From Candidatus Electronema aureum (lineage in GTDB: Bacteria; Desulfobacterota; Desulfobulbia; Desulfobulbales; Desulfobulbaceae): 32,000 nt of DNA. Under the pieces are notes generated by a model. That model saw only the letters and a program-made list of their open reading frames with translations. It had not been told where the DNA came from and ran no database searches. Below, in pieces: positions 5,866 through 31,940 of this stretch. Each line of letters begins with the position of its first letter. Position 1 is the stretch's first letter. The position numbers were made by a program, and so were the translations under genes. The stretch lies in contig NQJD01000026.1 of NCBI GenBank assembly GCA_004284765.1, positions 1-32,000 on the forward strand, written 5' to 3'.

Positions 5866-8414
5866 TGGCTGACAAGATTGATCAGACCGTTCAGGGTAGC
5901 GGTCATATCTTTTCCGGCACCGGTGATGTTCATGTCGAACATCATCATTACCCTCCCGGAACCGCTCCTCCCTCCCCGCCGCCCCCTCTCTCCGCTAAAT
6001 TCGACCTCTCCCGCCTGCCGACGACCGGTTCCGCGCTGTTTGGCAGGGACGACGAGCTTGCGCTGATTGATCGAGCCTGGCAGGAGAGCGGAACCAACGT
6101 TCTCGTGCTGACTGCGATGGGTGGCGCGGGCAAAACATCGCTGCTGCGGAAGTGGATTGACGATAAGCGGTATCGCGGCGCGGATGCGGTGTACACTTGG
6201 TCGTTTTATTTGCAGGGATCAAGCGGTGAGGAGCAGGCTTCAGCGGCTGAATTCTTTGACAACGCGCTGGCCTGGTTCGGTCATGACGGCAGCCCGATCC
6301 GCTCGGAGCATAACCGGGGCGTGAAATTGGCTGAATTGGTCTGCCGCCAGCGCACGCTGCTGCTGCTCGACGGCTTGGAGCCGCTCCAGCACCCCTTGGG
6401 CGGGCCGATGAACGGCGCGCTCAAGGACAAGGGCCTCGTCAGCCTGTGCGTGCAGCTTGCGGCGGACAACAACGGCCTCCTGCTCATATCCTCCCGCCAG
6501 CCGGTGATGGAGCTGAACGGCAGGCCGCATCAGCAGCAGCACGAGCTGGAGCCGCTCAACGCCGCAGCGGGCATCTCCTTGTTCCACGCCGCAGGGATCA
6601 AGGGCACCGACAAGGAGCTGACCGACACGGTGAAGGCGTACAACGGCCACGCTCTGTCCCTCAGCCTGCTGGCCAAGTACCTGAGCGAATACGAGAAGGG
6701 CGACATCCGCCAGCAGGACACGCTGCGCGGCCTGACCGAGTTCCCGGAGGCCACCCGCGACAGCCTCCACGCCTTCAAGGTGATGTCCGCCTATGAGCGG
6801 CAGCTCTTCGGCAGCCCGGATTTGCAGATCCTCTTCTGCCTTGGCCTGTTCGACCGCCCGGCTGCGGCGGAGGTCATGTTTTTTTTGCAGAAGGAGGGCC
6901 TCGTCGGTCTGCCCAACGACGAGCGGGTGTACCGCGCCGCCTGCGGAAGGCTGCGCAAGCAAGGGCTGCTGAACAAGATCCGCCCGGAGCAGCCGCAGAA
7001 CCTCGACACGCACCCGCTGGTGCGCCAGTATTTCGGCAAGAGGCTATCCGCGCTGCACCCGGAGAGCTGGCGGCAGGCGCACGTCCGGCTGTACGAGCAC
7101 TTCAAGGCCGCAGCCAAGGAGCTGCCCGATACCTTGGAGGAGATGGAGCCGTTGTTTGCGGCGGTGCGGCACGGCTGCGCAGCGGGGATGCGCCAGAATG
7201 CACTGGATGAGGTGTACTGGCTGAGGATAAAGAGGCAAAAAGAGCATTACTTAACCAGTAAACTTGGCGCATTTGCTGCTGACTTAGCCGTCGTATCCTA
7301 CTTTTTTGCCGTGCCGTGGAGTATGCCAGCCGCAGAATTGACCGATGATGCCAAGGCATGGATACTCATTGTGGCTGCATTCGGCCTGCGTGCCATTGGA
7401 CGGCTGACCGAGGCGGCAGAGCCGATGCAGGCAGGGCTGGAAATGGGAATTCAACAGGAAGATTGGAAAGGAGCAGCGGCAGCTGCCTCCAACCTCAGCG
7501 AATTATATCTGACTGTCGGCGATGTTGCGCAGGCAGTTGCCGCTGGACGGCAGAGCGTGGATCTTGCTGATCAGAGCGGAGACGCTGCGGGGCGCATAAC
7601 CTGCCGTACAACGCTCGCCGATGCCCTGCATCAGGCCGGAGAACTGGCGGATAGTCATGCCTTATTCGCTGAGGCGGAAAAAATGCAGCAGGAATGGCAG
7701 CCGGAATACGACCGGCTCTATTCATTGCGGGGATTTCGCTATTGCGACCTGCTGCTGGCTGGCGGCGCATGGCCGGAAGTGCGCGGGAGGGCGGAGAAGG
7801 CAATAAAAATCGCGGAAAAGTATCTGGGCTTATTAGATGTTGCCTTGGACAAACTTTCTCTGGGCCGCGCCGCTGTGCAAGAAGCGGTTGTGCAAGCTGA
7901 TCTGTCTATCATTTCAGGCGTTGCCCCGGACTTGGCCTGCGTTCAACCTATCAGTGGATACGTTGAACCTATCAGCCGAGGCGATGAACGTATCAGCGGA
8001 TGCGTTGAACGTATTGACGGAGCCGTCGAACGTATCGGCGGATACGATGAACCTATCCGCCGAGCCGTTGAATGGCTCGATCAGGCGGTTGATGGCCTGC
8101 GTGAAGCGGGTTATGAGGATTATTTACCGCGTGGACTGCTTGCCCGCGCCGCGTGCCGCCGCTGGGCAGCGCATTTTTCGGCTGCGGAACAGGATTTGCG
8201 GGAATGCGAAGAGATTGCCCAGCGCGGCGGAATGCAGCTGCACCTCATTGACTGCCATCTGGAGGCCGCCAGACTTGCTCGTGCCAGCGGCAGGGCCGTT
8301 CTTGGCCTCACCGCAGAGGAGCATCTGGCCGCCGCACAGGAGGGAATCGCCAAAACCTGCTATAAACGAAGGCTGGTGGAGGCGGAGGAGATTGCGGCGA
8401 TGATTCCTCAGTAG
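5865..8414 (+). CDS. STAND NTPase of NLR architecture (849 aa). Domain order: N-terminal short motif, His/Pro-rich linker, NB-ARC-like P-loop domain, C-terminal TPR-like helical repeats.
   Basis: The N-terminus is MADKIDQTVQGSGHIFSGTGDVHVEHHHYPPGTAPPSPPPP. The FGRDDEL box precedes Walker A AMGGAGKTSLL (nt 6120-6140). Walker B is RTLLLLDGLE. A GLPLA-like block is YNGHALSLSLLAKYL. The C-terminal half is Ala/Leu-rich and helical-repeat-like (..AASNLSELYLTVGDVAQAVAAGRQSVDLA..TTLADALHQAGELADSHALFAEAEKM..). Confidence 0.88.
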   Translation: MADKIDQTVQGSGHIFSGTGDVHVEHHHYPPGTAPPSPPPPLSAKFDLSRLPTTGSALFGRDDELALIDRAWQESGTNVLVLTAMGGAGKTSLLRKWIDDKRYRGADAVYTWSFYLQGSSGEEQASAAEFFDNALAWFGHDGSPIRSEHNRGVKLAELVCRQRTLLLLDGLEPLQHPLGGPMNGALKDKGLVSLCVQLAADNNGLLLISSRQPVMELNGRPHQQQHELEPLNAAAGISLFHAAGIKGTDKELTDTVKAYNGHALSLSLLAKYLSEYEKGDIRQQDTLRGLTEFPEATRDSLHAFKVMSAYERQLFGSPDLQILFCLGLFDRPAAAEVMFFLQKEGLVGLPNDERVYRAACGRLRKQGLLNKIRPEQPQNLDTHPLVRQYFGKRLSALHPESWRQAHVRLYEHFKAAAKELPDTLEEMEPLFAAVRHGCAAGMRQNALDEVYWLRIKRQKEHYLTSKLGAFAADLAVVSYFFAVPWSMPAAELTDDAKAWILIVAAFGLRAIGRLTEAAEPMQAGLEMGIQQEDWKGAAAAASNLSELYLTVGDVAQAVAAGRQSVDLADQSGDAAGRITCRTTLADALHQAGELADSHALFAEAEKMQQEWQPEYDRLYSLRGFRYCDLLLAGGAWPEVRGRAEKAIKIAEKYLGLLDVALDKLSLGRAAVQEAVVQADLSIISGVAPDLACVQPISGYVEPISRGDERISGCVERIDGAVERIGGYDEPIRRAVEWLDQAVDGLREAGYEDYLPRGLLARAACRRWAAHFSAAEQDLRECEEIAQRGGMQLHLIDCHLEAARLARASGRAVLGLTAEEHLAAAQEGIAKTCYKRRLVEAEEIAAMIPQ
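5877..5936 (+). other. N-terminal motif of the NLR (IDQTVQGSGHIFSGTGDVHV), homologous to the C-terminus of the upstream small protein
   Basis: See 5794-5862. The shared core is encoded with four synonymous codon differences (ggc/ggt, gga/ggt, cac/cat, tct/tcc). Confidence 0.75.
7950..8075 (+). repeat. Six in-frame tandem 21-bp (heptapeptide) repeats inside the C-terminal region of the NLR gene
   Basis: The units start at 7950, 7971, 7992, 8013, 8034 and 8055. They encode ISGYVEP / ISRGDER / ISGCVER / IDGAVER / IGGYDEP / IRRAVEW. A degenerate seventh unit (DLACVQP) precedes them at 7929-7949. Confidence 0.85.
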
Positions 8415-10351: not shown

Positions 10352-12025
<1,674 letters not shown>

Positions 12026-14914: not shown

Positions 14915-15700
14915 TTAGTACAGCGGCCTCGTTCCTTCACAAAGAGGAAACTTGGCACACCCCCAGAACTTACTTCCTGCATTTCTACCTTTCCGCGCTT
15001 CCCGCACAATCATTTCTGCGCCACAGCGTGGACACAATTGGTATTTACTTTTCTTTTCAGTGGCAATTGCTTGTACATGTTTGACATGCAATCTGCGATT
15101 ATGAAAACTATTTTTCAGTTTCCTATTCTTGATCGTATTAATAGCCGCATCTACCTGTGCCGAACTGAGTAGCTTTTTTTTCTGCGCTTTGATAAATGAA
15201 ATAAATTCATCTCGAAGTACAACATTATCTGGCATTTCTGTCTCAAAGCAACAGTTCCCTGCAAAAACAATCAAGGAGAAAATGTACTTTTCATTGATAC
15301 CCAGCAGCTCATGAAAAGTTTTTGTGTGCTTGTAGTTCTGATGCAGCGGATTCTGAAAGCTATTGACGTATGCACCGATTTGCTGCGTCCAGCTCCGCTC
15401 CTGCCTGCCGCCAGAGATCATCCCTTGCATGTTTTTGGTTTCAATGACAAAAATACCATACGGAGAAACTACTACATGGTCAATCTGCGTAGTGCCGTTG
15501 GTCGTCGGCAGGAGCAAGTTACTAAAGGTATGATAAACCTTCCTGTTCAAGTGCCGTCGGATGGCTCTGTTGATTCGTAATTCGCCGACCATCCCCTTGA
15601 ACCGCCGCGATTTGAGCAACTTCACTATCGCGATAGCGGGCAGGAGCAGCCAGAAGACTTTAAGCAGTCCGACAACGAATTGCGCGAAATCAGCAAACAT
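14915..15700 (-). CDS. NERD-domain protein with an N-terminal TM helix and a C-terminal topoisomerase-type C4 zinc ribbon
   Basis: NERD blocks are FKGMVGELRINRAIRRHL..YHTFSNLLLP..TTQIDHVVVSPYGIFVIETKNMQGMISG..W. The C-terminus is CPRCGAEMIVREARKGRNAGSKFWGCAKFPLCEGT. I prefer ATG 15700 (MFADF..); the ORF-track start is 15766. Confidence 0.8.
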   Translation of the reverse strand: MFADFAQFVVGLLKVFWLLLPAIAIVKLLKSRRFKGMVGELRINRAIRRHLNRKVYHTFSNLLLPTTNGTTQIDHVVVSPYGIFVIETKNMQGMISGGRQERSWTQQIGAYVNSFQNPLHQNYKHTKTFHELLGINEKYIFSLIVFAGNCCFETEMPDNVVLRDEFISFIKAQKKKLLSSAQVDAAINTIKNRKLKNSFHNRRLHVKHVQAIATEKKSKYQLCPRCGAEMIVREARKGRNAGSKFWGCAKFPLCEGTRPLY

Positions 15701-15855
15701 GCGGCGGCTCCAGTTCGGTGGTAAGGAAAAAGCTACAGCCTTTTTCTTACCATTCAGGCCCAGCAAAGGGCAACCGAAATTTCTTGGTTGACGTAGCGGC
15801 CTGCCCTGAATACCATGCGGCTTTCTCGCGAAAACAAATACACGGAGGACATACT

Positions 15856-23256: not shown

Positions 23257-25332
<2,076 letters not shown>

Positions 25333-25422
25333 TCAGCTCGGTGAATGAGGGACGTAGGCTGTCGCCGCTACTATATATGGAGTTTAAAAAGTTGTACAGA
25401 GGAATCAGCGAGACTGGCAGCC

Positions 25423-25445
25423 CTACCAGAACCACTTTAGCTCGG
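25423..25445. repeat. Left copy of a 23-bp imperfect direct repeat flanking the three-gene cassette
   Basis: CTACCAGAACCACTTTAGCTCGG here compares with CTACCAGTACCACTTCAGCTCGG at 28775-28797 (21/23 identical). A third partial copy TTCAGCTCGGTG lies at 25332-25343 and is 12/12 identical to 28788-28799. Confidence 0.75.
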
Positions 25446-25469
25446 CAAGTATCCAACGGATAAAATCTA

Positions 25470-25499
25470 TTGACAATCAGGTAGAGTATTTTGTATAGC
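25470..25499 (+). promoter_or_regulatory. Candidate sigma-70 promoter of the three-gene cassette
   Basis: TTGACA (25470-25475, perfect -35), an 18-nt spacer, then TATAGC (25494-25499). It lies about 100 nt upstream of the ATG at 25598, which has an AGGAGGA SD at 25580-25586. Confidence 0.55.
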
Positions 25500-25597
25500 C
25501 TTGGCTATTGATGCAACATCCCGCCAAGTTTCTTTGGCGAGTGAGAGGGTGCCGAATCTCGGTGAAAATCAGATTGTCAAGGAGGAAGCACATAGCT

Positions 25598-26014
25598 ATG
25601 CAGTGTGATTTTTACGACGCTCATGACCGTCACTGGCAGGATGCCGAGCAGCTTTTTCAGGCCCAGCGTTGGGCCAATGCGGATCATTTGTATGGCGTTG
25701 CAGCAGAGTGTGGTTTAAAGGCACTGATGCTGAAGTTCGGCATGGTTTTCAATTCAAACAAGGATATGCCTAACGATAAGAAAGATAGGGAACATGCCAA
25801 TGGTATCTGGGCGCGTTATGAAAGTTACCGCTCAGGACATCAACAAGGTGTAAGCTATGGCCTGCCGTCAGCTAACCCGTTCCAAGATTGGCATGTCTCT
25901 CAACGTTATGCCCACCAAGCGGATTTTGATATAATCCGTGCCGAATCGCACCGAAAAGGAGCCGAGTTGGTTTGCAAGCTCATAAAACAAGCTAAAACGG
26001 ATGGGTTGATATGA
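25598..26014 (+). CDS. Cassette gene A: small all-helical protein (138 aa) with a HEPN-like N-terminal helix pair; function unknown
   Basis: ATG 25598 has a strong SD. The product begins MQCDFYDAHDRHWQDAEQLFQAQRWANADHLYGVAAECGLKALMLKFG. This resembles the first two HEPN helices (..A..dl..A..L......a..l.y.a.E..LKA.l). No canonical Rx4-6H motif is visible; only RYAH and RAESH occur. Its stop overlaps the gene B start (ATGA at 26011-26014). Confidence 0.75.
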   Translation: MQCDFYDAHDRHWQDAEQLFQAQRWANADHLYGVAAECGLKALMLKFGMVFNSNKDMPNDKKDREHANGIWARYESYRSGHQQGVSYGLPSANPFQDWHVSQRYAHQADFDIIRAESHRKGAELVCKLIKQAKTDGLI

Positions 26015-27306
26015 TTACCTTTGATCAAGTTCTGCCGAAAGTTCATGAGATTCTGAAGCCGCACTCAGACACGATAAGCCGGATACAGCCTGTGATTGTC
26101 AATAGAGACCTTAATGGCCGGGTGCGTTTGATTATCCGAGAAACGATGAAAGGTAATTCAGTAGCGATGGCGGCAATCAAGACGATTGCCGCCGAACTCG
26201 CAGAGCAGCTAAAGCCGCATTCTTTCCCCGCTGGACAAGTCGTCCTGTTTGAAGATGATGATATGGAGAGTCTGCTTGCTGCTGCGCCAACTTTTCCCTT
26301 GGAGGACATTGAAGGCGTTTACGTTATGGACCGACTGGCCAATGAAAGCCGCTGGGCCAGCATTGCACCGCTTTCATTAGGTGTTCCTCGTGCGGTATTC
26401 TTCTCCATTAAGGGCGGTGTTGGCCGTTCCACCGCTATGGCGGTCTTGGCCTGGTCGCTGGCGCAGGCGGGCAAGCGGGTGCTGGTACTGGATTTGGATC
26501 TTGAATCACCTGGACTGTCTTCAGCCTTGCTGCCAGCCGAACGACAGCCCGCCTATGGCATTGCCGATTGGCTGGTCGAGGATTTAGTGGACAACGGCGA
26601 TGCTGTATTTGAAGACATGATTGCCATCAGCACACTTTCCCATGATGGCGAAATAGACGTGGTGCCAGCACATGGCCGCAATCCAGGCGAATACATTTCC
26701 AAGCTTGGTCGGGTCTGGATGCCCAAGATAGACAGTGACGGCAAGCGTGAAAGCTGGTCGCAACGTCTTGGACGGCTGCTGAACAAACTGGAAGAACACT
26801 TGCAGCCTGATGTCATTTTGATTGATTCACGCTCTGGCATTGATGAAGTGGCCTCAAGCTGCGTCACGGACTTGGGAGCCAGCTTGGTACTGCTCTTTGC
26901 CATCGATGGCGGACAGACTTGGTCGGGCTACCAAATGCTGTTTGGTCATTGGCATCAAGCTGGGGTTGCCCGGGAAATTCGGGAACGTTTGCAGCTCGTG
27001 GGTGCGATGATTCCTGAAACCGATGCCGCTGACTACTTCAGCAGTCTGTGCGAAAAGAGCTGGGATATGTTTTCCAACTCTCTTTATGACGAAGTGCCGC
27101 CCGGTGTCCCTATGGGTGAGCTGTTCAATTTTGACAACAGTGATGAGACTGCTCCGCACTTCCCTTGGCCCATCCGCTGGCATCGGGGATTTGCTGCCCT
27201 GTCCTCTCTGCACTCGCACCTTGAGACGATAGATGAAGTCCAAGTAGAGACGGTTTTCGGTTCCTTTATCAAAAGCTACGCTCTCTGCGGGGGCAGAATC
27301 TCATGA
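26011..27306 (+). CDS. Cassette gene B: ParA/MinD-fold ATPase with a variant deviant Walker A KGGVGRS, an N-terminal extra domain of about 125 aa and an extended C-terminus
   Basis: The Walker region is AVFFSIKGGVGRSTAMAVLAWSLAQAGKRVLVLDLDLESPGL (KGGVGRS at nt 26410-26430). Arg replaces the usual second Lys of KGGxxK[ST]. The Walker B-like block is PDVILIDSRSGIDE. The 431-aa length is much larger than ParA/MinD. Confidence 0.85.
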   Translation: MITFDQVLPKVHEILKPHSDTISRIQPVIVNRDLNGRVRLIIRETMKGNSVAMAAIKTIAAELAEQLKPHSFPAGQVVLFEDDDMESLLAAAPTFPLEDIEGVYVMDRLANESRWASIAPLSLGVPRAVFFSIKGGVGRSTAMAVLAWSLAQAGKRVLVLDLDLESPGLSSALLPAERQPAYGIADWLVEDLVDNGDAVFEDMIAISTLSHDGEIDVVPAHGRNPGEYISKLGRVWMPKIDSDGKRESWSQRLGRLLNKLEEHLQPDVILIDSRSGIDEVASSCVTDLGASLVLLFAIDGGQTWSGYQMLFGHWHQAGVAREIRERLQLVGAMIPETDAADYFSSLCEKSWDMFSNSLYDEVPPGVPMGELFNFDNSDETAPHFPWPIRWHRGFAALSSLHSHLETIDEVQVETVFGSFIKSYALCGGRIS

Positions 27307-28739
27307 CTGAAGTTAATCTAATCCGTGATGCCATTATTGCTGCTCTTCCTGCGGAGACATCAAATTACGGTGAAGTGCCAAAAACGGGTCATTTGTATGT
27401 GCCGCCAGCTCATTTGAAAGCTCTGCGGTTAGAAAGCTGTCTGGTGGTCGGAACCCGCGGCGTAGGTAAATCGTTTTGGACCGCAGCATTGGGTTCTGAA
27501 TCCATTCGCGCTGCTCTTGGACAATCAGTCTCTGCCCTGAAAACTGCCCGCGTTTATATCAGCTTCTCAGGAGTGGACAGAATTGAGGATTATCCCAATG
27601 CTGACATTTTTTCCCGCTTTTCAGAACAAGAGAAATCGTTCTATGACCTTTGGCGATGTGTCATCCTGCGCTGGCTTGCCAAAGAAATTCTCAATCAGCA
27701 GATTCCTAATGATAGATGGGAGGACACAGCGGACTGGCTGAAAAGCAATCCTGAAGATGCGGCCCGCATCGTTCAGCAGTCCAGCCAGAAATTGAATGAT
27801 GACAATCAGCATGGGTTGTTTCTGTTTGATGCCTTGGATCGAACCAGCCAGAACTGGAAGACGATGGACAATATTGTTCGTGATCTGTTGCGAACAGCTC
27901 TCTGGCTTAAGTCTTATCCAAAACTCAGCGCAAAGATTTTCCTGCGGGAAGATCAGTTCGAGCGCACCGTGACTGATTTCCCCGATGCCTCGAAACTTCT
28001 GGCAACCAAAGCCGAATTGAATTGGGCACAGCATGACCTGCACGGACTGCTGTGGCAGATGCTGATTAACGCCCCTGATAAGCATGGAGAATGCCTGCGG
28101 GCGGTTTATCAGAGAGTGACGGGAGCCGCTGAAGTTGAAATGAATAGCGGCTGGTGGCTGGCAGAAGAGATTAAACGGGAAAACACGATCCAGCGCAATC
28201 TGTTTAAAGCCCTAGCCGGGCCGTGGATGGGGAAAGATCGACGGCGGGGTGTGCCTTACGTATGGTCGGTCAGCCATTTAGCAGACGGGCGAGGTCGCAC
28301 TTCGCCCCGCTCTTTCCTTGCTGCAATCCGTCAAGCTGCAGAAGATTCACAGGAGCGTTATCATGACTACTCGTTGGCATTGCATTACGAAAGCATTAAA
28401 CGAGGAATTCAGAAAGCATCTGATATCCGTGTCAGTGAAATGGCTGAAGATTATCCTTGGGTGCGTACTTTTTTGGAACCATTAAAAGGATTGACAGTAC
28501 CCTGTGAGTTCGATCTGGTATTGGAACGATGGATATCCAGCTTTCCATCTGGCCCTGAAAGCGCACACGGCTCTGGACTCCCTCCGCAACATGCAGCACG
28601 GGGCTGGGAAGGAGTGAGAGAAGACCTACTGAGGTTAGGTCTCTTTGAAGCGAAGAAGGATGGCCGTATCGACATGCCCGACCTCTATCGTGTCGGTTTC
28701 GGTTTAGGTCGGCGAGGTGGAGTGAAGCCTAAAAGTTAA
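27303..28739 (+). CDS. Cassette gene C: P-loop NTPase (478 aa) with a large helical C-terminal region; function unknown
   Basis: Walker A is CLVVGTRGVGKSFWTAAL (nt 27450-27473). Walker B is HGLFLFDALDRTS. The C-terminal 250 aa have no motif I recognise. There is an ATGA overlap with gene B (27303-27306). Confidence 0.85.
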   Translation: MTEVNLIRDAIIAALPAETSNYGEVPKTGHLYVPPAHLKALRLESCLVVGTRGVGKSFWTAALGSESIRAALGQSVSALKTARVYISFSGVDRIEDYPNADIFSRFSEQEKSFYDLWRCVILRWLAKEILNQQIPNDRWEDTADWLKSNPEDAARIVQQSSQKLNDDNQHGLFLFDALDRTSQNWKTMDNIVRDLLRTALWLKSYPKLSAKIFLREDQFERTVTDFPDASKLLATKAELNWAQHDLHGLLWQMLINAPDKHGECLRAVYQRVTGAAEVEMNSGWWLAEEIKRENTIQRNLFKALAGPWMGKDRRRGVPYVWSVSHLADGRGRTSPRSFLAAIRQAAEDSQERYHDYSLALHYESIKRGIQKASDIRVSEMAEDYPWVRTFLEPLKGLTVPCEFDLVLERWISSFPSGPESAHGSGLPPQHAARGWEGVREDLLRLGLFEAKKDGRIDMPDLYRVGFGLGRRGGVKPKS

Positions 28740-28774
28740 AAATTCGGCATATTGTCTATCTATCGCTGAAAGCA

Positions 28775-28797
28775 CTACCAGTACCACTTCAGCTCGG
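28775..28797. repeat. Right copy of the 23-bp direct repeat flanking the cassette
   Basis: See 25423-25445. It lies 35 bp after the gene C stop and sits inside an imperfect hairpin (ACCAGTACCAC..GTGGAGATGGT). Confidence 0.75.
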
Positions 28798-28823
28798 TGG
28801 AGATGGTTGCGTTCTCCGCTTGC

Positions 28824-28919
28824 TCAATGCCCGATGAATAAGAAGAGGTCAAAGGAAATGGTGTCGATGCTGCACGGCCTGCACGGACTAAGGTACTCAG
28901 TGAGTAATACTTGCTTCAT
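28824..28919 (-). pseudogene. 31-codon relic of a HAD-like gene 5' end, start-coupled (ATGA) to the AlgJ-like gene stop
   Basis: The minus strand reads ATGAAGCAAGTATTACTCACTGAGTACCTTAGTCCGTGCAGGCCGTGCAGCATCGACACCATTTCCTTTGACCTCTTC.., encoding ..IDTISFDLF. The segment 28842-28868 matches 25222-25248, the IDTVTFDLF codons of the intact HAD gene, at 25/27 nt. GTCCGTGCAGGCCGTGCA versus GTCCGGGCAGGTCGTGCC matches 15/18 but in a shifted frame. Similarity stops after FDLF and a stop follows 5 codons later. Confidence 0.65.
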
Positions 28920-30514
28920 TGCTTTGTTGTTGGCACAGCCTTGATGGTCAGAGAGCGGAGGAGATAGGTTCCAGTCGTTGTACCGGGATCAATGCGGATT
29001 AGCCCTTTGACATGAGGATGAGGAAGACGGAAGAGCAGCCGGTTTGCACCTTTGCGCACGTTCTGCTCGACTCTATGCTGCGGCCTGATCGTTCCCTGAT
29101 CGTCAGCTGTAGTGAAATAGAGGGCAAAGTCTGTATCCTGCGGAGCATCTACATTGACCTCCACGAGATAGCGTTCGCCGTCTGCGGGTGGAGTGAACGG
29201 CACGACAAAATAGGGATCGCTGCTGGTAGCTTGCAGCAACAGGCCGTCAGTGCTTGGTTGCAGGCGCAGATCATGCCGAAGCGACACGCTGTTGATATCC
29301 AGTGAGTTATCAACCCGCAGCCGCACCTTGTCCGAGGCCGCATACTGTGCTTCCAACACCGCAGCTGTCAGCTGTGGATCAGGCGCGATCCGTTGCATGT
29401 TCCGCGCTACCCATACGTCAAAGACAATATCAGGTTTCACATGTGAAATAAGTTGCTTCAGTTGGTCGAACGGAACGTTTGGGGAGTAGATAACTCTTTT
29501 GAAGCGTTCATTGAAGTACCGTCGAAGGCCATTGCCAAAGGAATCATGAATAACTAATGCTGTCAACTTCTGCTGAGGGCAGCCGTTGGTAGAAGGTGCT
29601 TTAGCAGCGGCCTTCCTGTCTGGTAGCAATGCTAATTCCTGCGCCGATAGAGGTTGATCAGTACCAGCGCAGGGCTGTTTTATGTGAACAACAGGCACTG
29701 TTTCTCCCACTTCTTTCTCTAAGTGCATGAGTCGAGCTAAGTCACCAGAGAACGGTACGTTGTCTATAGAGAATTCATCCTTCGAGATTGCTCTCATCTG
29801 CGCTTCAGGGAACCATTGCTTGCAATATGCAATCATCTGGTTGAAAGCCAGCATGGCTCCTTCGTTTGTCCAATGCGTATCCGTCTTAAAGTAAAGCTGT
29901 CTTTCTTCTTTGTGTCTCTTGAAGAGAGCATACAGATTGACGGTATCATGAAACGTGACTTCTTTGTTTGCAGCAGCAATGAATTCCTCATAGAAAGAAA
30001 GCCCTCTGCTGCGTTGTATCCGGTTCGGCAGATAAGCATCATACACAGTTATTTTATTTGGTACAGGAATAAACAAATAGCGCACTCCGATGCGGGATAG
30101 CCAGTCTCGGCGGTCAGCGAAAAGAGCGAGGTACTCATCCATCGAGATTGCATCCGCCTGCCGCTGCCCGTAATAATCATCAATGACGGATTCTCCAGTA
30201 TAAAAGAACCAGCCTTCTTTCCCTTTAATAACTACTGGAGAAGGAGACAGATGGAGTACGTTTAAAGAGATTGCATTAGATGCCCTAATTAAACTGTCAC
30301 GCAAACCGAAATGATCCTGATAAAAGATGTCAAACTGCTTCGGAAAGGCAAGCATTCCTTGAAGATTACCCTTCACTTTTGGGAACGTTGCTAACTTTCT
30401 CTTTTCCGCTGTGGATATTTCTTTGCGAGGGCTGACGAGGAAAAGTCCCAAGGGCACGATGAGAACGAGCAGAAAGAGAGTGGAAAGAACTGCTGAGTAT
30501 ATCCGATTCCCCAT
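28916..30514 (-). CDS. AlgJ/AlgX-like (DHHW-type SGNH-like) polysaccharide O-acetylation protein with an N-terminal TM anchor and a C-terminal beta-module
   Basis: The N-terminal anchor is MGNRIYSAVLSTLFLLVLIVPLGLFLV. The signature is YFKTDTHWTNEGA (D-x-H-W of AlgJ/AlgX-type acetyltransferases). It sits immediately downstream of an MBOAT gene, as algI-algJ does in alginate O-acetylation. Confidence 0.75.
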   Translation of the reverse strand: MGNRIYSAVLSTLFLLVLIVPLGLFLVSPRKEISTAEKRKLATFPKVKGNLQGMLAFPKQFDIFYQDHFGLRDSLIRASNAISLNVLHLSPSPVVIKGKEGWFFYTGESVIDDYYGQRQADAISMDEYLALFADRRDWLSRIGVRYLFIPVPNKITVYDAYLPNRIQRSRGLSFYEEFIAAANKEVTFHDTVNLYALFKRHKEERQLYFKTDTHWTNEGAMLAFNQMIAYCKQWFPEAQMRAISKDEFSIDNVPFSGDLARLMHLEKEVGETVPVVHIKQPCAGTDQPLSAQELALLPDRKAAAKAPSTNGCPQQKLTALVIHDSFGNGLRRYFNERFKRVIYSPNVPFDQLKQLISHVKPDIVFDVWVARNMQRIAPDPQLTAAVLEAQYAASDKVRLRVDNSLDINSVSLRHDLRLQPSTDGLLLQATSSDPYFVVPFTPPADGERYLVEVNVDAPQDTDFALYFTTADDQGTIRPQHRVEQNVRKGANRLLFRLPHPHVKGLIRIDPGTTTGTYLLRSLTIKAVPTTKQ

Positions 30515-30518
30515 AGTT

Positions 30519-31940
30519 TCAGAACCGGAAGTAAATAAATGGGTTGTAGGAATTCACCGCCAGCGAGGCGGCGGAGTAGAGCAGTATGGCGGTGATCAGC
30601 AGCAGCTTTACGGCCTGTGCAGGTAGGGCCAGTATCGCAGTGGTTGGCTGCAAATTCTTTCGCAACCAAGGATAAAGAGGCGCACTCAACATAATTCCAG
30701 CAGCAAGGGAACAGCACCACCTGCTGTCAAGCCTCATGCTGATCTGCGGCAACATTGTGTCAGCCTTGGCAAATCCGTACATAGCTGCAAAATAGCTCCC
30801 CACATCAGCCAGCCGCTCAAGCCGAAAGAGCACCCAGCCATTACCGATCACGAAGAGTGTGTACATATGCTGCCAGAACGGATGCTTCTGATCCAGCATC
30901 TTGCCGAAACGTCCGCGTTCTACGACAAGAAAGACTCCGTACAGCAGTCCCCAAAGGATGAAGTTCCAACTTGCGCCGTGCCAGAGGCCGCAGAGCAAGA
31001 AGACAATAAGCAGATTGAAACCAGTGCGTACCGCTCCGTGCCGGTTGCCACCGAGCGGAATGTAGAGATAATCGCGCAACCAAGTAGAGAGAGACATATG
31101 CCATCGCCGCCAAAACTCTCGTACCGAGCGGCTGATGTAGGGATAGTTGAAATTTTCTAAGAGATGAAAGCCGAACATTCGGCCTAAGCCGATGGCCATA
31201 TCCGAATAGCCTGAAAAATCAAAATAGATTTGCAAACTATAGCAAAGGACACCCAGCCAAGCAGTGCCAGTTGAAAGTGTTTCTGCGGGTAGAGTGAAAA
31301 TTTGATCAGCCAATTGACCCACGGAATTGGCGATCAGCACCTTTTTTCCTAAGCCGAAGATGAAACGTTCTGCACCTGCGGCAAAGTCAGTGAGAGTAAT
31401 TGTTCGTTGTTTAATCTGCTCGGCAATATCGTTGTAGCGGACAATAGGGCCAGCAATGAGCCGAGGAAAGAGAGAGAAATACAGTCCGATATACAGAGGA
31501 TTCTTCTGGGCTGGATATTTCTGCCGGTAGATATCAATCAGATACGACAGGGCTTCAAAGGTGAAAAAAGAAATGCCGATAGGCAGATGCACTTTCTCCA
31601 ATACAAGATGCTCGATACCGAACTGAGTAAGAAGCGCATTGAAATTGGCAACGATAAAATTGGCATACTTAAAGAATCCTAGCAGACCAAGATTGACAGC
31701 CACTGCCACTGCCAAGACTAACTTCTCTGTTTTTCCTCGCCGACTGATCAGCAGACCGAAGAGGTAATTGATAAAAGCCGAGGCGATGAGGACGAACACG
31801 AAAAGTTGCTCGCCCCAGAAATAGAAAAGAATACTGCCTGCCAGCAGGAGAACATTCCGTCCCCTTGCTCCAGCACAGAGATGCGCTGCCAAGATGATCG
31901 GCAGGAAAAAGAAAAGAAAAGTTATGGAGCTGAAAAGCAT
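30519..31940 (-). CDS. MBOAT-family membrane-bound O-acyltransferase (AlgI/DltB-like)
   Basis: The N-terminus is MLFSSITFLFFFLPIILAAHL. The catalytic-His region is FWRRWHMSLSTWLRDYLYIPLGGNR. The 473-aa polytopic organisation is typical of AlgI/PatA/DltB. Confidence 0.9.
   Translation of the reverse strand: MLFSSITFLFFFLPIILAAHLCAGARGRNVLLLAGSILFYFWGEQLFVFVLIASAFINYLFGLLISRRGKTEKLVLAVAVAVNLGLLGFFKYANFIVANFNALLTQFGIEHLVLEKVHLPIGISFFTFEALSYLIDIYRQKYPAQKNPLYIGLYFSLFPRLIAGPIVRYNDIAEQIKQRTITLTDFAAGAERFIFGLGKKVLIANSVGQLADQIFTLPAETLSTGTAWLGVLCYSLQIYFDFSGYSDMAIGLGRMFGFHLLENFNYPYISRSVREFWRRWHMSLSTWLRDYLYIPLGGNRHGAVRTGFNLLIVFLLCGLWHGASWNFILWGLLYGVFLVVERGRFGKMLDQKHPFWQHMYTLFVIGNGWVLFRLERLADVGSYFAAMYGFAKADTMLPQISMRLDSRWCCSLAAGIMLSAPLYPWLRKNLQPTTAILALPAQAVKLLLITAILLYSAASLAVNSYNPFIYFRF

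Follow-up and report, generated by a model that had tools for sequence, protein, structure and literature searches.

We analysed the first 32,000 nucleotides of contig NQJD01000026.1 from the cable bacterium Candidatus Electronema aureum (hereafter the window), which carry three co-oriented genes that form a compact cassette on the plus strand and almost certainly constitute a copy of PDC-M28, a catalogued candidate for a phage defence system. Gene A (25598-26014) encodes a protein of 138 amino acids (aa), gene B (26011-27306) one of 431 aa and gene C (27303-28739) one of 478 aa; A and B, and likewise B and C, are translationally coupled through ATGA stop/start overlaps at 26011-26014 and 27303-27306, and all three open reading frames (ORFs) are intact. 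Between 16550 and 31940 these are the only large ORFs on the plus strand, all others being on the minus strand and encoding GDSL/SGNH hydrolases, Acyl_transf_3, HAD-like, AlgX-like and MBOAT proteins. The initial annotation of this DNA had described three overlapping plus-strand genes in an otherwise minus-strand locus, and the ORFs and overlaps are found just as it gave them. Protein C is 100% identical to a Candidatus Electronema aureum hypothetical protein with the locus tag CDV28_12624.

Upstream of gene A, the left arm of the cassette (25446-25597, plus strand) contains a putative promoter, a leader of ~92 nt and a Shine-Dalgarno sequence, AGGAGG at 25580-25585, with the ATG of gene A 12 nt downstream; the right arm (28740-28770, plus strand) comprises the 31 nt from the stop codon of C to the right copy of a flanking repeat. 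The promoter had been described as near-consensus, which is true in part. A -35 hexamer TTGACA (25470-25475) and a -10 hexamer TATAGC (25494-25499) are present with an 18-nt spacer between them, and a related contig, L090 (loci and contigs from other genomes carry L numbers throughout), has an orthologous cassette that retains the two of them around a spacer that has diverged. However, while the -35 hexamer is perfect, the -10 hexamer agrees with TATAAT at 4 of 6 positions, and a consensus promoter scanner made no call at the proposed site because the final T of the -10 is missing. From the sequence, a promoter belonging to the cassette is thus moderately supported. The leader was also folded together with the start codon (95 nt, 25506-25600) as a test for an RNA antitoxin of the AbiV style; the resulting z of -0.33 is not significant, the predicted leader stem is not conserved in L090, and Rfam and tRNA scans of the window gave no match.

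Family identity and the three proteins

In PADLOC-DB v2.0.0 the three proteins match the three families of PDC-M28 from end to end: A matches PDC-M28A (E 3.8e-57, positions 1-137 of 138), B matches PDC-M28B (E 6.3e-184, 1-427 of 438) and C matches PDC-M28C (E 1.7e-205, 1-479 of 480), with no other PADLOC family matching any of them at E<=1. The genes are adjacent, co-oriented and ordered A>>B>>C, as in the PDC-M28 cassette definition FAM_01482>>FAM_02546>>FAM_01036; the assignment is made from these model matches and the gene order, and is not a call of the PADLOC program. The initial annotation took the trio for an undescribed combination, and had itself named an assignment to a known system by DefenseFinder or PADLOC as one result that would speak against this; with full-length matches to all three PDC-M28 families, that claim has to be given up. 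PDC stands for "phage defence candidate", a term for 145 single- or multi-gene candidates that were derived from genes embedded in bacteriophage exclusion (BREX), DISARM and type I restriction-modification (RM) systems (Payne et al., bioRxiv 10.1101/2024.01.29.577857). These candidates were put into PADLOC without testing, the prediction being made by guilt-by-embedding, and the supplement of the same study lists the cassette as CAS_00115, with three families, a count of 121 and the remark "Assign as candidate PDC-M28" (bioRxiv 10.1101/2024.01.29.577857). PDC-M28 is a candidate label, and not a validated or mechanistically described system, and no domains are given for it in the text. The window copy shares with it all three families, the gene order, and relatives that are embedded in BREX-type systems; it differs in that it is a solo copy, not embedded, in a cable bacterium.

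Protein A is predicted to be a helical bundle (AlphaFold2 model, predicted local distance difference test score (pLDDT) 90.9) of the HEPN-like, four-helix kind, and its top ten Foldseek matches in the PDB are all HEPN domains (TT1696, SsR10, TM0613, ST0689, 4nqf, sacsin), while a sequence search of the PDB with A gave no match. The view that the cassette contains no evident effector therefore goes too far, since A looks HEPN-like in its modelled fold, though it does not have the Rx4-6H motif that defines catalytic HEPN RNases: the R103-Y104 pair is invariant, no His follows 4-6 residues downstream, and the conserved H118 is 15 residues away. Near-invariant in the family are R11-H12, D15, R24, N27, D29, E37-C38, K41, H66, W98, R103-Y104 and H118, with 13 near-invariant residues of polar or catalytic type in 138 aa. 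With the RNase motif missing, several activities are conceivable for A: cleavage of RNA through another kind of active site, binding of a nucleotide, or a function as an adaptor. In a set of 841 clusters at 50% identity, members of the A family are almost always stand-alone proteins of ~138 aa. A variant seen on one metagenomic contig only (L100, 434-1711, P0437) has A fused to an N-terminal Fic domain of the AMPylase type (Pfam, E 1.5e-16), with a B gene directly following at 1701; this Fic-fused relative matches HEPN_AbiV with an E of 5e-5, and the arrangement fits A in the position of an effector. Many A homologues (e.g. P0151, P0177, P0188, P0230) carry the public name 'SAM-dependent methyltransferase', which is probably a propagated misannotation, since the name cannot be reconciled with a protein of 138 aa that has an all-helical, HEPN-like model.

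In comparison with AbiV and other HEPN abortive-infection modules, A is likewise small, helical and HEPN-like, with a weak match to HEPN_AbiV and with HEPN proteins as its best structural matches. It differs in that the place of Rx4-6H is taken by a conserved R-Y ... H(R/K) pattern and an N-terminal R-H pair, and in that it is partnered with two ATPases instead of an RNA or an MNT protein; nothing in the leader points to an RNA antitoxin. AbiV itself, the closest named relative among HEPN proteins, is an rRNA-degrading RNase that is restrained by an RNA antitoxin (PMC13064643).

Protein B has a core (residues ~125-314) of the ParA/MinD class (SIMIBI) with a variant P-loop, KGGVGRST (26410-26433), the signature Lys K134, a switch I motif DLDLESPG and a Walker B motif ILIDSRSG. 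In 27 of 27 aligned sequences Arg stands in place of the P-loop Lys, while the signature Lys is kept, and B departs from the deviant Walker A pattern KGGxxK[ST] in missing the second Lys. It belongs to the NCBIfam family AAA_KGGVGR (197.9 bits, cut-off 90), a name that carries no function, and has Pfam matches to CbiA/ParA/AAA_31. Around the core, N-terminal (~125 aa) and C-terminal (~115 aa) regions are conserved, for which Pfam, NCBIfam, PDB profile and PHROGs searches detected no relatives; in the PDB profile search only the P-loop region matched (MinD/Soj/ArsA), and PHROGs returned a generic ParA-like match for B and nothing for the other two proteins. Against equivalog models B stays far below the cut-offs, with 31.6 bits for BcsQ (cut-off 157.85), 31 for MinD (212.9), 27.8 for ParA (180) and 23.2 for eps_fam (108), and the cassette contains no ParB-like or MinE-like gene. 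B thus resembles the ParA/MinD/BcsQ proteins in its signature Lys, switch I, Walker B and a P-loop region akin to MinD, Soj and ArsA, but is set apart from them by the Arg of KGGVGR, the additional terminal domains, the sub-equivalog scores and the lack of a partner of the ParB, MinE or BcsE type.

Protein C is a P-loop ATPase of the Sll1717 family (NCBIfam NF047389, 82.5 bits, cut-off 75; this name, too, carries no function), with a Walker A motif GTRGVGKS at 27450-27473, a Walker B motif LFLFDALD at 27816-27839, and a basic, nearly invariant C-terminal tail, PDLYRVGFGLGRRGGVKP. Both of these motifs, and KGGVGRST in B, had been quoted in the initial annotation and are indeed present. The model of C (AlphaFold2, pLDDT 86.8) has the N-terminal ATPase of BrxC (9zll, E 4.6e-5) as its best Foldseek match, followed by Aeropyrum pernix ORC2 (1w5s/1w5t, E 4e-4), with a probability of 1.0 but TM-scores of only 0.3-0.47. 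Matches to Pfam NACHT and AAA_16 are below the cut-offs, and no sequence relatives were found in the PDB. Judged by its model, C would be an ORC/Cdc6/STAND-type, BrxC-like AAA+ ATPase, and its helical C-terminal domains can be read as a lid and a winged-helix-like domain. Among the BrxC/DUF499 ATPases it is thus closest in structure to BrxC, ahead of archaeal ORC2/Cdc6, but in contrast to them it is small (478 aa), has no long series of C-terminal domains, and superimposes at the low TM-scores given above. A profile-profile comparison of C with DUF499 proteins encoded near its relatives gave a probability of 0.3%, which is uninformative, as the DUF499 set was small and included partly truncated ORF calls. 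The pairing of a HEPN protein with an ORC-like ATPase recurs in type-1 BREX-related systems, including HEPN-DUF499 fusions (PMC12839542).

Linkage and genomic context

Homologues of C number more than 2,000 in the protein collection that was searched. A pattern scan with one genome per species yielded 367 loci, and the best 80 of these, which come from many phyla at 54-66% identity, were used for the analysis of neighbours; they include Proteobacteria, Desulfobacterota, Chloroflexota, Chlorobi, Synergistetes, Spirochaetes, Acidobacteria, Nitrospirae and Peptococcaceae. Identities of this order across so many phyla argue for horizontal transfer of the trio. For linkage we considered the 72 species genomes with at least 1.8 kb of sequence upstream of C: full-length A and B lie directly upstream of C, on the same strand and in the same order, at 65 of these loci, where the A and B matches usually abut, and the other seven are decayed or partial copies. 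The proposed linkage of B and C to each other and to an A-like gene is therefore borne out. The order of the trio persists in distant copies (30-45% identity) on plasmids and in predicted proviruses; the trio is carried by 24 of 72,556 plasmids and by 7 IMG/VR contigs, while none of 50,697 GenBank phages has a C homologue.

The neighbours of the 80 loci were clustered, and representatives of the clusters were annotated. In Sphaerotilus (L003) the trio is part of a BREX-2 locus, where it is placed between pglX and DUF6079/pglZ. A further arrangement recurs, whole or in part, at 10 loci: a DUF499 ATPase, DUF3780, sometimes DarG, a DUF1156 methyltransferase, the trio, and a PLD-helicase, with the methyltransferase directly upstream of the trio in 8 of the 10 and the PLD-helicase directly downstream in 6. 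This arrangement is that of a type-2 BREX-related system (PMC12839542). PglZ, BrxL and type I RM proteins occur occasionally among 140 random neighbours from 59 other loci; integrases are not prominent among the neighbours, and most loci, that of the window included, are without a BREX-type partner. The guilt-by-embedding signal is thus reproduced independently, and the cassette is mostly found alone. With its conserved linkage, its frequent embedding in BREX-type systems and no tie to exopolysaccharide genes, the trio does behave, as had been suggested, like a self-contained and foreign unit of the kind found in conflict systems.

DarG, the macrodomain antitoxin of DarTG, is encoded upstream of the trio at L056, L057, L079 and L048 (e.g. 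at 846-2009 of L079), and at L056 and L057 it lies within the same DUF499/DUF1156 BREX-related locus as the trio. Since the two share these loci, BREX-related loci appear to serve as docking sites for several independent defence modules.

Repeats, empty site and mobility of the cassette

The cassette is bracketed by direct repeats of 23 bp (25423-25445 and 28775-28797, 21/23 identical), as the initial annotation had noted; they can be extended to 27 nt, with 24 of 27 positions identical between the left copy (25419-25445, AGCCCTACCAGAACCACTTTAGCTCGG) and the right copy (28771-28797, AGCACTACCAGTACCACTTCAGCTCGG). There is no other copy of the core repeat in the window, and in none of 100 dinucleotide shuffles was a 23-nt match found at <=3 mismatches. 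Nor is there an integrase, transposase or recombinase between the copies, again in agreement with what had been reported: A, B and C are the only genes there, and none has a recombinase domain in Pfam, PADLOC and NCBIfam searches.

Related cable bacteria were located through homologues of the HAD-like protein encoded to the left of the cassette (23257-25317, minus strand, 686 aa; the first gene of an acyltransferase/SGNH operon). Among these, a Logan contig, L087, is closest to the window (95% identity in protein, 91% in DNA). It aligns with the window from 25447 leftwards across the HAD-like gene, and also with 28842-28771, the two alignments overlapping by 29 nt; L087 is thus an empty site, with both flanks contiguous, a single copy of the repeat and no cassette. 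It follows that 25446-28770, a segment of 3,325 bp with the putative promoter, A, B, C and the 31-nt tail, is a discrete unit of insertion or deletion. In L087 the repeat forms the end of an upstream gene, namely its last eight codons plus stop codon, and it is directly after this stop codon that the cassette lies. The gene belongs to the DUF7843/Lnb_N/DUF7840 family and encodes 633 aa in Ca. Electronema sp. PJ; its product ends in ...AELKWYW*. When read on the minus strand, the left repeat copy of the window duplicates the last 8 codons and stop of this gene, while the original end of the target gene is reduced to a remnant at 28771-28842 (minus strand). The remnant was recognised by blastn to L087 (633-706) and L084 (3338-3410) and by tblastn with the 633-aa protein of L084; it consists of the last ~24 codons (...IEQAENATISTELKWYW*), is frameshifted, and is joined to the pseudo-5' end of a HAD-like gene.

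Orthologous cassettes with 78-80% DNA identity occupy the same site in two more distant contigs of Electronema type, L090 and L092. At the cassette end that each of these contigs covers, part of the same Lnb_N-type gene end is still present, whereas different genes are found on the opposite side; the L090 cassette directly adjoins the HAD-like gene. Several further Electronema relatives are without the cassette. The region upstream of the HAD-like gene (25318-25418), which contains a promoter-like site, is conserved in the relatives that have no cassette. The cassette had been thought to be inserted into the surrounding operon, but it does not split one: on one side of it is the stop codon with which the upstream gene remnant ends, and on the other the conserved region that belongs to the HAD-like gene and precedes it.

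On the far side of the right repeat, the pseudo-copy of the HAD-like gene (28842-28919, minus strand) comprises the first ~26 codons, frameshifted, with an ATG at 28919-28917 that overlaps the stop codon of an AlgX/SGNH-like gene (ATGA; 28916-30514, minus strand, 532 aa), itself preceded by an MBOAT gene (30519-31940, minus strand). The 146 nt that separate the cassette from the AlgX-like gene (28771-28919) are in this way a mosaic of Lnb_N/DUF7843-family and HAD-like remnants, which implies an earlier rearrangement or deletion at this place. The gene that adjoins the upstream region of the HAD-like gene also varies between contigs (L084, L085, L086, L089, L090 and L092), being a protein of ~800 aa with no known function, an ODP metallo-beta-lactamase-like protein, RadA or an Lnb_N-like protein, and this indicates that the region is a local recombination hotspot in Electronema lineages.

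Flanking repeats were also surveyed in other genomes, by comparing the 350 nt upstream of A with the 350 nt downstream of C at 61 loci that have a full A-B-C set and adequate flanks. At 7 of the 61 loci the best match scores at least 18/22, whereas 40 shuffled controls never exceeded 16/22. In Geobacter (L011) the repeats are 106 bp long and perfect (8119-8224 and 11449-11554) and represent the 3' end of the upstream gene with its stop codon; judging from the last 34 codons, we read this gene as ComM/YifB-like. Halovibrio (L040) has repeats of 42 bp (8167-8208 and 11451-11492; 40/42), and a gammaproteobacterial metagenome-assembled genome (MAG; L026) has repeats of 174 bp at ~90% identity (7799-7972 and 11627-11800). 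Shorter ones are found in Ectothiorhodospira (L043; 25 bp, best window 20/22), in a Spirochaeta MAG (L072; 23 bp, best window 18/22) and on a Tistrella plasmid (L001; 22 bp, 19/22); the seventh locus, the Sphaerotilus one (L003), is GC-rich and its match possibly due to chance. The repeats thus range from 22 to 174 bp and differ in sequence at each site, and at the six loci where the repeats were extended we saw no recombinase inside the cassette and no conserved termini.

The length and variability of the repeats are too great for a classical target-site duplication by a transposase, which we considered and rejected; we likewise rejected a conserved att core, the repeat sequence being different at every site. 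The cassette may spread by a Campbell-type single crossover of a circularised form carrying homology to its target, or through a recombinase acting in trans. With repeats and an empty site present and a recombinase of its own absent, we describe the element as integrase-less, and the data suggest mobility at the level of the cassette. It resembles the integrase-less, cis-mobilisable islands found at the 3' ends of genes, in that the repeats include the target's 3' end and stop codon, the empty site has a single copy, and repeats occur at other loci as well; it differs in its size of only 3.3 kb, in repeats of variable length whose sequences are specific to each site, and in showing neither a recombinase nor conserved termini.

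Elsewhere in the window, on the minus strand at 14915-15766, lies a gene for a 283-aa protein with a nuclease-related NERD domain and a topoisomerase-type C4 zinc ribbon. Its neighbours are housekeeping genes (CobU, an HflX-like GTPase, GroEL, RsmI and an RlmI-like protein); the protein itself may be related to defence.

Defence function and competing explanations

Starting from what is observed, namely the family identity, the conserved gene order, the embedding in BREX-2 and DUF499 BREX-related loci and the insertion/deletion polymorphism, we somewhat favour the view that the cassette is an autonomous, horizontally mobile module against phages or other mobile DNA, and that it would act by abortive infection. 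A defence function as such can be assumed with the same, moderate confidence.

Several points weigh against this interpretation. PDC-M28 is mentioned in none of the papers of the library searched, and no experimental report on it was found, so that the system is a prediction only. Other PDC candidates have failed on testing (PMC12409345); 4 of 8 candidates gave protection in another study (PMC12881386); PDC-M28 was not among the PDC candidates tested in either. Literature searches on KGGVGR and Sll1717 brought up nothing on the PDC-M28 proteins, and a search for papers joining ParA, MinD, HEPN and defence islands found none. Where the trio is not embedded, most of its neighbours are ordinary genes, and the window is otherwise composed of housekeeping genes and is not a defence island. 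As to protein A, the Foldseek matches reach a probability of 1.0 but have E-values of 0.06-0.9; its match to Pfam HEPN_AbiV (17.0 bits, E 0.007) is below the cut-off of 27.1, as is that to NCBIfam AbiV_defense (13.2 bits, cut-off 27), and alignments of the A family do not contain the canonical Rx4-6H motif.

How such a module might work can be sketched as follows. C would be an ORC/Cdc6/STAND-like switch that senses some cue of the invader, and B a dimerising, ParA-type nucleotide switch that couples or gates the response; since its P-loop Lys is replaced by Arg, hydrolysis by B would be expected to be slow and the bound state long-lived. A would then be the toxic effector, released or activated on infection and acting, probably on RNA like other HEPN proteins, to bring about abortive infection. 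The roles are assigned by analogy with systems that combine ATPases with an effector and with the HEPN/ORC-like pairing in BREX-related systems, and for B and C by analogy only, which is a further point against the scheme; we hold this specific division of labour to be tentative, and suspect that it is rather unlikely to be right in its details. Slightly less doubtful, but still short of what we would expect, is that the system is mechanistically new, i.e. that a ParA switch with an Arg P-loop and an ORC/BrxC-like sensor jointly control a non-canonical HEPN-fold effector without the RNase motif, and that promoter and operon move together without an integrase, inserting behind the ends of genes with target duplications of 22-174 bp. 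The cassette resembles PARIS, Septu, Gabija and Lamassu in being a compact, coupled operon with one or more NTPases, a small putative effector and horizontal mobility. These systems, however, have ABC-type ATPases and Toprim or HNH nucleases, where the cassette has a SIMIBI/ParA-type and an AAA+ ATPase with a HEPN-like protein, and none of their PADLOC models matches A, B or C at E<=1.

If the trio were instead accessory to BREX-type DNA-modification systems or a back-up for them, e.g. a second-line set of effectors that depends on BREX or DUF499 components, the solo copy in the window would be an orphan with little activity. The precise, co-oriented slot between methyltransferase and PLD-helicase at the 10 loci and the position inside BREX-2 at L003 are what one would expect of such a module, as is the resemblance of C to the AAA+ core of BrxC, and many auxiliary effectors, stand-alone HEPN proteins among them, are known to be embedded in BREX and BREX-related loci (PMC12839542). 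Yet ~85% of the complete loci are outside such systems, solo copies have kept intact ORFs at 54-66% identity across phyla, and the cassette has a putative promoter of its own; nor did the profile of C show similarity to the neighbouring DUF499 proteins, few and partly truncated as these were. Embedding does not imply dependence in any case, as is shown by DarTG, which is found within these loci as well and is a system in its own right. We regard dependence on BREX-type components as unlikely.

Similarly improbable, in our judgement, is a selfish role in addiction or stabilisation, in which toxin A would be held in check by the ATPases and the trio would chiefly secure its own persistence, or that of the DNA carrying it, in the genome, with no net benefit against phages. 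HEPN proteins are common toxins of toxin-antitoxin (TA) systems (PMC13064643), an IncF plasmid copy in Enterobacter lies beside an integrase and GNAT/DUF1778 TA pairs, and a discrete mobile unit that has flanking repeats in several genomes and is polymorphic in presence and absence between close Electronema lineages would suit such an element well. It sits less well with the trio being found on so few plasmids and being embedded repeatedly in defence systems, and two large ATPases would make a costly antitoxin; moreover, TA and abortive-infection functions are not mutually exclusive.

The idea that B and C serve the acylation locus, as ATPases for partition, positioning or polysaccharide export (like ParA/MinD, BcsQ or BY-kinases), can draw on the weak matches of the B P-loop to the CBP_BcsQ, MinD, ParA and eps tyrosine-kinase models and on the AlgI/AlgX-like, Acyl_transf_3 and SGNH genes around the cassette, but we reject it as scarcely credible given scores far below the equivalog cut-offs, the P-loop Lys to Arg change, the lack of a ParB-like partner in the cassette, close relatives that retain the operon without the cassette, and neighbours at the 80 other loci that are unrelated to polysaccharide synthesis. 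A consistent, co-oriented place in exopolysaccharide operons, which the initial annotation had offered as a sign of such a role, is accordingly not what is seen: the cassette is antisense to the locus here and has unrelated neighbours elsewhere.

An anti-phage or anti-mobile-DNA module thus remains our preferred explanation for the cassette. That the trio is a defence candidate was already known from its catalogue entry, and its comparative support is good; the empty site is added here. To our knowledge, there is as yet no pure culture of a cable bacterium, and the interactions of these organisms with phages are barely known. If PDC-M28 is a working defence system, it would provide a concrete immune gene set for cable bacteria. 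The family joins an atypical HEPN protein to an ORC/BrxC-like ATPase and a ParA-type switch, a combination that is unexplored; it occurs in hundreds of species and lies repeatedly within BREX-type systems. The precise empty site, together with the copies that have flanking repeats in genomes unrelated to this one, may be instructive as to the spread of small defence cassettes that lack a recombinase of their own.

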